Notes: generated from the sequence alone by a model not told the origin. 4,612 nucleotides of DNA from a virus (IMGVR_UViG_2671181050_000008), one strand, 5' to 3'; numbered from the stretch's first letter, positions 1,394 through 4,213 are shown. A program made the numbers and translations.

Positions 1394-2059
1394 TCAAATA
1401 AAACCAGCTGCCTTCCGGCGTTCGTATTCCTGTTTCAGCCGTTCAATTGGCGTTGGCCCTTGCGGGTGTTTCGCCCCTTCCAGTTGTCGTCGCACTGGCG
1501 GAACACTCATCCCGTTACCAACATGCTTTGCCCATTTCGTCAGTTGCCGTTCCGCAAGTCGTTTTAACTCACCCTGCGTCATCTGGCGCTCAATCCCTCT
1601 GGTACGCATTTCGAGGCAGATGTGGTACAGCACAGGCTGAGGCCACGGATATTTGTCGCTTCCGTCATATCGCCAGGACTCATCACGCCAGCGGCGGTAC
1701 TCCTCCATCACAGCATCCACCGTCAGGCCAAATGGATTGGCCCCGCTTTCTGAAATCAGCGCCACAAACTCAGCCAGGTCCGGAGGCCATGTTTCACCCG
1801 CCCGGCAGCGGTCCATGCACTGGCGGCAGACCTGTCGGATTTGCTGCTCAGTCATCGTGCCAATCTGTGCAATCCAGAGCTTCGAAGGTGCGGCCCCGTT
1901 CTTCTGGGTCCAGCGGTTCGAATAAACCTCCCCCATGAGTTCCCACAGCTTCCAGACCGTTTCCGTCGCTGATAAATCCGTTTTCACGTTCCCACTGCTC
2001 ACGTGCTGCCCGAATTTCCTGAACTGCCCGTGATGCGGTGCCACCTGGTGCTGCTGCAT
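1394..2059 (-). CDS. Replication protein P-like helicase loader (221 aa)
   Basis: ATG at 2059..2057 is preceded by AAGGGGG 5 nt upstream. Several blocks match lambda P as recalled: KLWIAQIGTMTEQQ vs RQWVLAFRENGITTMEQV, WPPDLAEFVALISE vs FLPSPGQFVAWCRE, YPWPQPVLYH vs YPWKSNAHYW, MTQGELKRLAERQL vs LTDAELRRKAADEL. The first 212 nt overlap the upstream O-like ORF in another frame, so the exact start is uncertain. Confidence 0.7.
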   Translation of the reverse strand: MQQHQVAPHHGQFRKFGQHVSSGNVKTDLSATETVWKLWELMGEVYSNRWTQKNGAAPSKLWIAQIGTMTEQQIRQVCRQCMDRCRAGETWPPDLAEFVALISESGANPFGLTVDAVMEEYRRWRDESWRYDGSDKYPWPQPVLYHICLEMRTRGIERQMTQGELKRLAERQLTKWAKHVGNGMSVPPVRRQLEGAKHPQGPTPIERLKQEYERRKAAGFI

Positions 2060-2888
2060 GGTTTACCCCCTTGCTGACTGGCTTAACCTGCGCCCTGACG
2101 TGATTTACGTGACGGGCGAATTTCTGCTCCCACTGAACCTGCGTGAAAACTTTCCCCTCCGCTGCCCAGTAGTCCCGGAAAGCGGCAAGTTCAGCAGGTG
2201 TAAATTCCGGCTCCGGCAAAGCCATCCCCCACAACGCAGCCCGTCGTCGAAAATCCGGCGACGGATGCCAGTCATCGACCATCGGAAATTTCCCGATGGG
2301 TTCGCTCAGTCCATCCAGGGATGCAGGTTCTGCTGCCTGCAACGGCGTACCACTCGACTCACTGGTCGGAGCACTCTCGCGCACGTGCGCGTTATGTGTG
2401 GGGTTTAATTCTTTATCTGTATCTTTATCTGTCGTGACTCGTCGTGACATGTCGTGACATATGCGTGACTCGTCGTGACACCCCTCATTCTGTTTTCGTA
2501 ATTTTTCCCTCTCGCGCTGCGCTCTCTTGCGCTCTGCCGGGGATTTCGCGGTTTGTGAAACGTTGCCATTGTCCTCTTTCAGTACCTGGCGTTTTTCCCA
2601 TCCGGTGATTAAATCTCCATCAAGTACCCGCCCCTGCATTGCCTGTAAAATTGAATCAATTACTTCTTCCGTCACATCAAGCGCACTTGCTAAATCTTCC
2701 GTCGTGACATCAATGTGACCACGTAGTGACACGCCGTGACATGTCGTGACATTTCGTGACGCGCTCACCAGAAGGTGGATATACACTGCCATCACTGTTG
2801 CAATTGGCTGCCCTGACACCCTGGCAATTGTTCGCCACTTAGGGTCATTTGGCATGTCATGCCATAATCTGAGCCAGGCGTTAGCCAT
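1848..2888 (-). CDS. Phage replication initiator, O-like / YdaU-like replisome organiser (346 aa), carrying the origin iterons internally
   Basis: Track start at 2894 is GTG; ATG at 2888..2886 is preceded by GAGGTGA 4-5 nt upstream. Trp-rich N-terminal domain (AWLRLWHDMPNDPKW...GWEKRQ) followed by a Lys/Arg/Glu-rich linker. Sits directly upstream of the P-like gene and contains phased iterons, the lambda O arrangement. Occupies the ydaU position after the YdaS/YdaT-like genes. The C-terminal ~70 aa overlap the P-like start and may be a read-through extension. Confidence 0.65.
   Translation of the reverse strand: MANAWLRLWHDMPNDPKWRTIARVSGQPIATVMAVYIHLLVSASRNVTTCHGVSLRGHIDVTTEDLASALDVTEEVIDSILQAMQGRVLDGDLITGWEKRQVLKEDNGNVSQTAKSPAERKRAQREREKLRKQNEGCHDESRICHDMSRRVTTDKDTDKELNPTHNAHVRESAPTSESSGTPLQAAEPASLDGLSEPIGKFPMVDDWHPSPDFRRRAALWGMALPEPEFTPAELAAFRDYWAAEGKVFTQVQWEQKFARHVNHVRAQVKPVSKGVNHAAAPGGTASRAVQEIRAAREQWERENGFISDGNGLEAVGTHGGGLFEPLDPEERGRTFEALDCTDWHDD
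2403..2480. other. Candidate origin of replication: five phased iterons next to an AT-rich tract
   Basis: Iteron starts at 2431, 2441, 2451, 2462, 2472 (GTCGTGAC, one variant TGCGTGAC), spaced 10-11 bp. Adjacent tract 2403-2430 (tttaattctttatctgtatctttatct) is AT-rich with a duplicated CTTTATCTGT. In the gene's direction of transcription the order is iterons then AT-rich tract, as in lambda ori inside O. Confidence 0.6.
2701..2760. repeat. Second iteron array: six phased GTCGTGAC-like repeats
   Basis: Units start at 2701 (gtcgtgac), 2712 (aatgtgac), 2723 (gtagtgac), 2733 (gccgtgac), 2743 (gtcgtgac), 2753 (ttcgtgac), spaced 10-11 bp. Same core as the 2431-2479 array, about 220 bp away, inside the N-terminal coding region of the initiator gene. 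Confidence 0.6.
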
Positions 2889-2959
2889 ACTCACCTCTTC
2901 TGATACCGAATCTTTTTACTCACAAATTGCCGGAAGTGATCCGGTATGAATATTGCGAG

Positions 2960-3385
2960 TCAATGCACAGCCACAATATTTCCTGCAGGGCCACCACGAT
3001 TCATCTGGTTGAAACCAGCGATCGCCACTGCGACAAAATCATCAGCGTCTCTCACCAGTCGTTCCCGCGTCTCCACCAGCTCCCGAAAATAAGCTGAACT
3101 GTGGCTGCGCATTCGGGCCACCAGCAGAGGCGGCATTGCTTTTTCGATCGCTGGTAACAACGCCTGAATTTTTTTAACCGCATCAGGAGTGTCTTTCTCC
3201 ACCCAGCGGAAAATTTTCTGGGTATTGCGAGCCAGGGCTTCCGGATGGCTGTCGTCATATAATTCCGGGAACGTCATACCAAGCTCAAAATAAGCCCGGG
3301 TTATTTCAGCTGCCGGAACTTTTTCACCGTCCGGATGCGCCCAGGCATTCATCGCCATGCGGATGTGCTCATGCCTGATTTTCAT
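2960..3385 (-). CDS. ydaT: YdaT-like protein (proposed CII functional analogue), 141 aa
   Basis: ATG at 3385..3383 is preceded by GGAG 7 nt upstream. Start overlaps the end of the Cro-like gene by 17 nt. Size (~140 aa) and position between the Cro-like gene and the replication genes match ydaT of Rac-type prophages. Assignment is mainly by synteny. Confidence 0.65.
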   Translation of the reverse strand: MKIRHEHIRMAMNAWAHPDGEKVPAAEITRAYFELGMTFPELYDDSHPEALARNTQKIFRWVEKDTPDAVKKIQALLPAIEKAMPPLLVARMRSHSSAYFRELVETRERLVRDADDFVAVAIAGFNQMNRGGPAGNIVAVH

Positions 3386-3644
3386 GAATCAACTCCGATG
3401 CATTTGGTGTGTTAGCCTTGAATCCAACAGGTAAGCCGTCGGTTGGATTCGGGTAAATATCAGGCCGGAGTTCATGAGGTGTAACCTCGAAATTCGTTAC
3501 TTCAGCAACACGTAATGCTTTTTCAGGGCTGAATCTTTCATAGCCCCCCAGCACTCGACTTACATGCACCTGAGATAAACCCGTTAGCTTCCCAAACTGT
3601 AGCTGGGTGATATGTTTCTCTTTTAAATAGTCTCTTAAGTTCAT
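3369..3644 (-). CDS. ydaS: Cro-like HTH regulator, YdaS family (91 aa)
   Basis: Track start at 3650 is TTG; ATG at 3644..3642 is preceded by GAAGG 6 nt upstream. HTH segment (ITQLQFGKLTGLSQVHVSRVL) and C-terminal ELRPDI motif match E. coli K-12 YdaS as I recall it (CEELRPDIDW). First gene downstream of the divergent promoter region. Confidence 0.75.
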   Translation of the reverse strand: MNLRDYLKEKHITQLQFGKLTGLSQVHVSRVLGGYERFSPEKALRVAEVTNFEVTPHELRPDIYPNPTDGLPVGFKANTPNASELIHENQA

Positions 3645-3674
3645 AGCCAACCTTCTACGTTATGCCTCGAGCAA

Positions 3675-3751: not shown

Positions 3752-4213
3752 ATGAAAAAAACACGCGAAGTGATTGCAACTCCAGAAGCGAGCAAGAATT
3801 TAAAAGCCGCATGGAATGCAAGAAAAAAAGAGCTGAAGCTGACTCAAGAGCTGGCGGCTGAGTTGTTGGGATTCGAATCTCAAGGCACCGTTAGCCAGTA
3901 TCTGAACGGCAAGATACCGGTAAATACCGACGCTGCGCTAAAATTTGCGGCTCTGTTAAAGGTAAAACCAGAGGACATTCGAGAAGACCTTAAAGACTTA
4001 ATGAATTATGTAAGATCATCAGATACTTATGATGATAACTTTTCAGGCAAAGGATGGAGGCTGGTCAATGAAGAACAGGCAGAGTTACTTAACCTCTTCG
4101 AGATTCTACCTGCGTCAGAAAAAGCCAAACTCCTTAACCAGCTACGTGGACTAAACAAGCTCTACGAGGAAGCCTTCGAGAACATGCTGGCACTAAAGAA
4201 ACGTAACCAGTAG
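3752..4213 (+). CDS. CI/RacR-like HTH (XRE-family) prophage repressor, 153 aa
   Basis: ATG start. HTH segment LTQELAAELLGFESQGTVSQYLNGK. Divergent from the Cro-like gene across ~100 bp of promoter/operator DNA. Size close to RacR. No peptidase-like C-terminal domain is obvious. Followed by an intrinsic terminator. Confidence 0.75.
   Translation: MKKTREVIATPEASKNLKAAWNARKKELKLTQELAAELLGFESQGTVSQYLNGKIPVNTDAALKFAALLKVKPEDIREDLKDLMNYVRSSDTYDDNFSGKGWRLVNEEQAELLNLFEILPASEKAKLLNQLRGLNKLYEEAFENMLALKKRNQ

Follow-up and report, generated by a model that had tools for sequence, protein, structure and literature searches.

A second iteron array inside a phage initiator gene, a conserved DNA element and probable component of a bipartite replication origin

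Phage replication origins are known to lie within the gene for their own initiator. In phage lambda the iterons of such an origin form a single contiguous block in linker-coding sequence. By contrast, the initiator gene of the virus IMGVR_UViG_2671181050_000008 has an extra block 229 bp upstream, in the coding sequence of the folded DNA-binding domain. What does this second array contribute, and which molecule reads it? The analysis below adds to the known arrangement the second array and the two-part layout to which it belongs. The window, meaning the whole stretch of 4,612 nucleotides that was analysed, represents the immunity and replication region in a prophage of the Rac/lambdoid type, with its early genes on the minus strand:

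3752 to 4213, plus strand: CI-like repressor gene
3369 to 3650, minus strand: Cro/YdaS-like gene
2960 to 3385, minus strand: YdaT-like gene, in the cII position
1848 to 2888, minus strand: O-like initiator gene of 346 aa with its ATG at 2888, assigned from PF17948, PHROG, the NCBI name and a winged-helix model
1394 to 1855, minus strand: lambda-P-like helicase-loader gene, directly 3' of the initiator gene (PF06992, 6e-16)
Downstream of the P-like loader gene: DUF1627 and DUF977 genes

The loader ATG at 1855 was picked by analogy with RefSeq homologues, which overlap the initiator gene by 8 nt. Three elements of the initiator gene concern the question directly:

2699 to 2762, minus strand: array A, six iterons with GTCAC(G) on the coding strand, recognised from statistics, conservation, frozen synonymous sites and co-variation with array B
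2429 to 2481, minus strand: array B, five iterons with a GTCACG core in the same orientation as array A, in linker-coding sequence (CHDESRICHDMSRRVTT)
2403 to 2432, minus strand: AT-rich tract, a candidate DNA-unwinding element, directly 3' of array B in the coding direction

This part of the gene is widespread. Positions 2380 to 2900 of the window, which hold the N-terminal-domain coding region and both arrays, were used as a query and matched 2213 of 5426 complete E. coli genomes at a DNA identity of at least 80%; some E. coli chromosomes contain DNA identical to the segment. Matches to the initiator module occur in about 40% of the complete E. coli genomes, among them O157:H7 strains that have several copies.

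The initiator consists of an N-terminal winged-helix domain (aa ~1-96, window ~2600-2888), a basic linker and a C-terminal DnaT-type domain. The last of these matches PF17948 at aa 203-269 (E=9.6e-18, 64 bits against a cut-off of 25). The NCBIfam DnaT model scores 97 bits, under its equivalog cut-off of 201, so the initiator has a DnaT domain yet is not DnaT itself. Its N-terminal domain matches no Pfam family at threshold, including PF04492/Phage_rep_O, the lambda O family, and PF09681 (Phage_rep_org_N) gives a weak match at noise level in one of 35 family members (E=0.033). PHROG "replisome organizer" families match at 4e-5 and 2e-3, PHROG files the protein as "replication initiation protein", and its NCBI name is "phage replisome organizer". 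An AlphaFold model (mean pLDDT 68.7) predicts three helices, a hairpin at residues 47-58, and then a helix-turn-helix and wing. The stretch joining helices 1 and 2 in this model is predicted with low confidence and tolerates length changes; it is the part encoded by array A. A Foldseek search of the PDB with the model returned weak winged-helix matches only (CRP, MarR and RepA_N, all at E>0.08), which support the predicted winged-helix fold class and nothing narrower. A PDB sequence search with the family profile gave nothing meaningful.

Array A itself is unambiguous. On the plus strand its GTGAC cores lie at 2704-2708, 2715-2719, 2726-2730, 2736-2740, 2746-2750 and 2756-2760, with copy spacings of 11, 11, 10, 10 and 10 bp. 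A first-pass annotation of the sequence had reported six 8-mers starting at 2701, 2712, 2723, 2733, 2743 and 2753, and these starts proved exact, both in the sequence and by pattern search. It had also put the array about 220 bp from the other one and inside the N-terminal-domain coding region. The array edges are indeed some 220 bp apart (229 bp from last copy to first copy), and array A occupies codons ~43-63 of the initiator ORF, encoding ASRNVTTCHGVSLRGHIDVTT. The coding-strand unit is approximately (A/G)TGTCACGAC. The GTCACG core is complete in four copies, and the other two have GTCACT and GTCACA. In array B, plus-strand GTGAC occurs at 2434, 2444, 2454, 2465 and 2475, and all eleven copies of the two arrays have the same orientation. 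Both Tandem Repeats Finder and a second repeat search place arrays A and B in one repeat family. CGTGAC occurs 10 times in the window against an expectation of 2.14, a count reached by none of 200 dinucleotide shuffles, and the longest chain of GTGAC at 10-11 bp spacing has six members, compared with a maximum of two in 5000 first-order Markov simulations of the window. A chance origin of the phasing in array A is excluded. One further CGTGAC, at 2108, was considered as an array-related copy and rejected; Rac-SA53, which has no arrays, has the same copy, which is thus unrelated to them.

The constraint on array A lies in the DNA. Because the period of 10-11 bp is not a multiple of three, the iteron word is read as VTT, CHD and SR in successive copies, and since the copies fall in differing reading frames the repeat acts at the DNA level, not the protein level. 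Synonymous codon choice agrees with this. Among 22 genes of the GTCACG class, drawn from different species with a mean pairwise nucleotide identity of 0.70, codons 43-55 have a normalised synonymous-codon entropy of 0.20, compared with 0.81 across 64 other columns (Mann-Whitney p=1.1e-7). Val47 GTC, Thr48 ACG and Gly50 GGT are invariant (22/22 each), as are His51 CAC (21/21) and Val54 GTC (22/22), and the 90% consensus is GCGTCACnnAnTGTCACGCGnGGTCACnnnnnnGTCACG. An independent test in genes of the CGAACGC class gave the same picture (0.16 versus 0.74, p=3e-6). Array A is a real DNA element under purifying selection at the DNA level.

Both arrays belong to the family at large. Their positions in the gene are unchanged in E. 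coli prophages, Aeromonas phage pAEv1818 and several Pseudomonas phages, as well as in prophages of Bordetella, Chromobacterium, Serratia, Rahnella, Gilvimarinus and other gamma- and beta-proteobacteria. The most distant relative with two arrays, Ralstonia phage Firinga, shares 37% protein identity. Phage Evi, whose complete genome measures 40 kb, has no clusters of the motif other than arrays A and B. Array A has six copies in the window type and four in Evi, Tritos, the Aeromonas phage and the Pseudomonas phages, a difference of exactly 21 bp, or two iterons, or seven codons (TCHGVSL). The comparison with relatives that the first-pass annotation had recommended therefore has a clear outcome: arrays A and B are both conserved, and array A is indel-polymorphic only in whole-iteron steps (6 versus 4). 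Array A is absent while array B is kept at one of 47 genome loci (L048), and six loci have neither array, so array A is not indispensable in every lineage. The prophages lacking array A or both arrays may be defective.

The two arrays also change together. Different lineages use different iteron words, namely GTCACG, CGAACGC and GTAACGC, with a fourth, GCAACGC, in both arrays of Firinga. Within each class the identical word recurs at 10-11 bp spacing in arrays A and B, except in array A of the GTAACG class, where the copies are 21 bp apart. The 47 genome loci are distributed as follows:

Array A GTCAC, array B GTCAC: 23 of 47 loci
Array A GAACG, array B GAACG: 12 of 47 loci
Array A TAACG, array B TAACG: 5 of 47 loci
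Array A none, array B none: 6 of 47 loci
Array A none, array B GTCAC: 1 of 47 loci
Array A of any class, array B of a different class: 0 of 47 loci

The same motif thus occupies both arrays at 40 of 47 loci, and discordant pairs are found at none. On a tree of the N-terminal domain with the loop masked, the motif classes are interleaved, which implies that arrays A and B have switched jointly several times. One such joint switch is visible on a single backbone, in L030 (GTCACG) as against L031 and L035 (GTAACG). Another example is L047, whose loop is a hybrid in which array A comprises a copy of about 30 nt of its own array B beside a CGAACGC-class remnant. Gene conversion between the arrays, rather than selection for one reader, could explain part of the co-variation. 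The family offers a natural system of concerted evolution, in which an initiator and two sets of sites change together. The four motif classes would correspond to replication-specificity groups, which bears on cross-activation between co-resident prophages.

The exceptional spacing of the GTAACG class is instructive with regard to dual coding. At 21 bp the word stays in its Val-Thr frame and avoids the TAA stop of another frame, and this spacing gives a direct view of how coding and binding constraints are reconciled. In this family a phased protein-binding array appears to run through the coding sequence of a folded domain, and the DNA motif visibly shapes the peptide.

Sequences next to the arrays distinguish one from the other. 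The AT-rich tract beside array B contains TCTTTATCTGT twice on the plus strand; it is a tandem repeat whose GATAAA/GATACA units encode DKDTDK. The GC minimum (35%) lies at 2400-2439, and in 19 relatives the 40 nt past array B have a GC fraction of 0.17-0.40, compared with 0.40-0.64 for the gene part. A local dip to 35% GC at 2640-2679 was considered as a second unwinding element after array A and rejected, since the dip is not conserved among relatives. Because a conserved AT-rich tract adjoins array B only, array A is accessory and does not amount to a second complete origin.

The explanation that we favour, with moderate confidence, is that array A gives the winged-helix domain of the cognate initiator a second set of binding sites, and that arrays A and B and the AT-rich (GATAAA)n tract together constitute a bipartite origin. 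The first-pass annotation had listed an auxiliary initiator-binding site among its options. Of that suggestion the genuine phased array stands as it was, and a site for the initiator is probable on the strength of conservation, frozen synonymous sites and A/B co-variation. Units of 10-11 bp, one helical turn each and all in one direction, would seat initiator molecules head-to-tail on one face of the helix in each array. Protein-protein contacts would then bridge arrays A and B, and the intervening ~230 bp, which encode the rest of the DNA-binding domain, would be looped or wrapped into a larger and more stable origin complex. This complex would melt the AT-rich tract adjoining array B, after which the C-terminal DnaT-like domain and the P-like loader would recruit the host helicase. 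From sequence comparison we infer all three premises of this scheme, that is, the initiator as binder, the bridging of the arrays and a positive effect on initiation; the role of array A would most likely be architectural. The helical phase offset between arrays A and B clusters weakly around -1.8 bp despite differing gaps (R=0.41, Rayleigh p~0.003, in sequences that are non-independent through shared ancestry), and such a weak shared phase fits bridging.

The initiator is suggested as the reader by the company that the arrays keep. Their sole constant neighbour is the N-terminal domain, while upstream genes, C-terminal domains (DnaT-type or others) and loaders or helicases vary. Comparison with two groups of relatives delimits the unit that moves:

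2431 to 3361, minus strand: exchangeable module of the YdaT-like gene, the N-terminal domain and both arrays, a block non-homologous to Rac-SA53

Rac-SA53 matches the window on either side of this block, with no homology inside it. Evi/Tritos-type phages have window positions 2410-3396 in common with it and a different C-terminal half. From the limits of these blocks, the N-terminal domain and both arrays move as a single module. Because both arrays lie within about 330 bp of reader-coding DNA, sites and reader are inherited or exchanged as one cassette. The junctions of the module fall not at array A but at array B and the AT-rich tract, with the homology to Rac-SA53 ending at 2430/2431.

Several known replicons resemble this arrangement in part. 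In ori-lambda, as in the window, the origin lies inside the initiator gene, iterons are followed by an AT-rich tract, a P-type loader gene is downstream and transcription comes from pR. Iteron number varies among lambda and Stx phages as it does here, with four in lambda and six in Stx phages, where the extra ones are needed for replication. The window initiator, unlike lambda O, is no lambda-O homologue. Lambda iterons are palindromes of 19 bp bound by dimers, whereas the units in the window are short direct repeats of 10-11 bp. Another example is satellite phage P4, in which ori and crr are two separated clusters of an 8-bp direct iteron that a single initiator binds; replication requires the two of them in cis, with the initiator presumed to bridge them by looping. 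P4 is like the window in placing one short direct iteron in two clusters. Its clusters are ~4.5 kb apart and outside the coding sequence of a DNA-binding domain, and its initiator, a primase-helicase, is unrelated to that of the window. RepA_N replicons such as pSK41 likewise have iterons inside the gene of an initiator with a winged-helix N-terminal domain, and RepA N-terminal domains can bridge two DNA duplexes. Two of these domains (4pta and 4pql) are among the fold matches of the predicted model; since these matches are weak (E~0.6), homology to RepA_N is not established. RepA_N replicons differ from the window in having a single central array and in their hosts and gene context. In the bipartite origins of Bacillus subtilis and Helicobacter pylori, two clusters of boxes lie around dnaA, the DNA between them is looped and unwinding occurs beside one cluster. 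There, unlike in the window, DnaA is the initiator and the clusters occupy intergenic DNA on either side of the whole gene. Our search of the literature, including work on the ydaU/Rac origin and on non-lambdoid Stx replication regions, found no description of this putative two-part origin or of its motif. [quoted passage not shown]

Known two-site systems (SPP1 oriL/oriR, Stx phages, P4 and P1) provide positive and negative precedents alike, and a negative role for array A is possible, if rather unlikely. Initiator bound at array A could be titrated there, could handcuff sister origins, or could block RNA polymerase coming from pR and so autorepress the initiator and loader genes. The first-pass annotation had raised handcuffing and autoregulation, and the layout lends itself to both, with one iteron repeated in two arrays apart from each other, an AT-rich tract beside just one of them, and array A at codons 43-63, where an occupied array would stand in the way of polymerases transcribing the initiator and P-like genes. 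The control iterons of plasmid P1 incA are a precedent. In P1 (incC/incA) and R6K, one of two arrays of the same iteron adjoins the unwinding region, the initiator can pair the arrays, and the control arrays are dispensable and act negatively. The distal array of the window, unlike theirs, is as conserved as the proximal one, and it lies within coding sequence in a phage replicon. Control arrays are typically dispensable or variable, whereas array A equals or exceeds array B in conservation, is lost alone at a single locus of 47 and is steadier in copy number: among 80 close relatives (viral contigs), 74 have six copies in array A, while array B varies from three to six. Array A does not display the pattern expected of a handcuffing array, that is, an accessory array both dispensable and more variable than the origin array. 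Its stability, and its loss jointly with array B, argue against a dispensable control array. Moreover, a phage that replicates lytically has little obvious need to limit its copy number, and array B is intragenic too, so that a roadblock role would not be special to array A.

An origin with an asymmetric accessory site could also direct replication forks. In phage SPP1, as in the window, oriL lies inside the gene of the initiator gp38 and combines direct repeats with an AT-rich unwinding element, and the initiator has a second, separate site. Gp38 bound at that second site, oriR, has been proposed to stall forks and to aid the switch from theta to rolling-circle replication. By analogy, initiator at array A, some 230 bp from the unwinding site, might act as a barrier that imposes unidirectional replication or helps to trigger a theta-to-rolling-circle switch. 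Besides this proposed role of oriR, the position of array A on one side only of the AT-rich tract and the single direction of all its copies speak for such a barrier. SPP1 oriR, however, is a complete origin ~13 kb away, intergenic and with an AT-rich region of its own, whereas array A is 230 bp away in the same gene and has no conserved AT-rich tract. The sequence shows no sign of fork-arrest polarity, and the weak in-phase signal fits bridging better. A fork barrier is accordingly improbable.

A separate issue is how the initiator, as the presumed reader, would set its specificity. With the loop masked and the three main classes compared, no residue outside the loop was found to track motif class (top normalised mutual information 0.61), which keeps in play a hairpin-based mechanism. 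There is a small chance that the hairpin encoded by array A itself sets iteron specificity, in which case array and reader would be partly the same DNA and specificity could switch in one step; a change in the repeat would alter the site and the peptide that reads it together. L037, L045 and L046 have near-identical predicted recognition helices and three different motifs, and differ chiefly in the loop. In one subclade an iteron copy likewise encodes the beginning of the recognition helix, and between L030 and L031/L035 a His/Asn change at the start of helix 3 is written by the GTCACG or GTAACG copy. Against a reading hairpin, the change from GTC to GTA leaves the peptide unaltered in the Val-Thr frame, and winged helices do not usually contact DNA through the segment that joins helix 1 to helix 2.

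The same lack of class-tracking residues outside the loop would also suit a reader other than the initiator, such as a host factor or another phage regulator. This is very unlikely: flanking genes and hosts vary widely while the arrays remain tied to the N-terminal domain, and recognition by a host factor would leave unexplained why the same host groups contain four motif classes.

It is more unlikely still that array A has no function as DNA, its repeats having arisen incidentally, either through selection for the encoded peptide (SRNVTRGHxDVT) or by slippage in a loop that tolerates it. The loop is indeed constrained as protein, in that every class retains an Arg-Gly pair, though in differing register relative to the iteron, and its length changes in 21-bp steps. 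Peptide selection does not account for synonymous third positions frozen in two independent classes, nor for a period that is not a multiple of three, nor for the recurrence of the same motif, whichever the class, in the linker array 230 bp away. Overlapping signals were sought as another cause of the frozen codons. An Rfam scan of the window gave no matches, a scan of 2300-3000 gave no promoter-like site, and the only terminator-like matches in that interval are to a GC palindrome at 2378-2400, outside the arrays.

The proposal that array A is a recombination remnant, half an origin left behind by a swap of origin specificity, draws on the mosaic nature of the region (the Rac-SA53 break at array B, the Evi-type C-terminal half that differs from 2410 on, the hybrid loop of L047 with its remnant of another class), and it is refuted as the first-pass annotation had framed it, since the two-array layout spans four motif classes down to 37% protein identity and is ancestral to the family, the exchanged module always has both arrays, and the junctions lie elsewhere than at array A.

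The initiator gene includes one more conserved copy of the motif:

2669 to 2677, plus strand: single inverted iteron-like copy, with GTCAC on the plus strand at 2671-2675, identified by pattern search and in relatives

This copy lies 33 bp 3' of array A in the coding direction and supplies the D-V-T with which the predicted recognition helix begins. It recurs at an equal offset in E. coli, Aeromonas and Pseudomonas relatives. Its Val65 codon, GTG in 19 of 19 sequences, is the sole fully invariant degenerate codon outside array A, where one further column is nearly fixed.

The initiator gene (1848..2888, minus strand) encodes an N-terminal winged-helix domain, a linker and a C-terminal DnaT-type domain. 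Two iteron arrays with the same GTCACG core lie within it: array A, six phased iterons at 2699..2762 (minus strand), and array B, five iterons in the linker-coding region at 2429..2481 (minus strand), which adjoins an AT-rich tract. When window positions 2431-3361 were compared with Rac-SA53 (L001), array B and the AT-rich tract proved to be the exact site of the recombination junction. Rac-SA53 shares the DnaT-type C-terminal half of the window's initiator and has a different N-terminal domain, which, going by the name of its RefSeq match, is of the DUF1376 type. The GTCAC arrays are absent from Rac-SA53.

The AT-rich tract at this junction (2403-2432) is a GATAAA/GATACA hexamer repeat and encodes (DK)n or (DT)n. 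The number of hexamers differs widely, reaching at least 8 units in one related locus (L053, gene nt ~375-420), and in some relatives the tract contains GATC (Dam) sites. Just downstream, within the coding sequence, lies a perfect 14-bp GC palindrome, CGCGCACGTGCGCG (2378-2391). It is kept in only part of the relatives, and in one of them (L003) it has been deleted.

Another domain arrangement is found in the Serratia and Pantoea loci (L058 and L062), where the N-terminal domain of the window's initiator is joined to another C-terminal part. The latter contains what looks, from its sequence, like a putative GIY-YIG/T5orf172-type motif (YVYYV...GISRNPW). Arrays A and B are both absent from these loci, and short CTACGTA repeats occupy their place. 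The Noviherbaspirillum locus L048 is the sole relative with array B (ATGTCAC x3) and no array A. Because its backbone is similar to that of the CGAACGC iteron class, L048 may be a recombinant or decaying prophage.

Some E. coli genomes, such as those of O157:H7 strains, carry 3-5 copies of the window module, and co-resident prophages may therefore have one iteron class in common. Prophages sharing a class in this way could cross-activate one another or compete for the initiator.

Array A itself is polymorphic in steps of whole iterons (window ~2716-2736 compared with the relatives L007-L011). The window type has six copies, whereas Evi, Tritos, an Aeromonas phage and Pseudomonas phages have four; the two forms differ in length by 21 bp, corresponding to 7 codons (TCHGVSL), and the reading frame is preserved. 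In the Pseudomonas sp. JAI111 locus (L037), the array has grown to approximately 8 copies (gene nt ~130-215) in a loop that is 23 residues longer; large array expansions are thus tolerated by the loop. Forward and inverted units are mixed in this expanded array.

A lone iteron-like unit in inverted orientation is located 33 bp downstream of array A, at 2669-2677, and may represent a third origin element. It reads TGTCACGTC on the opposite strand in many of 19 diverse relatives, and its GTG Val codon is present in all 19 without exception.
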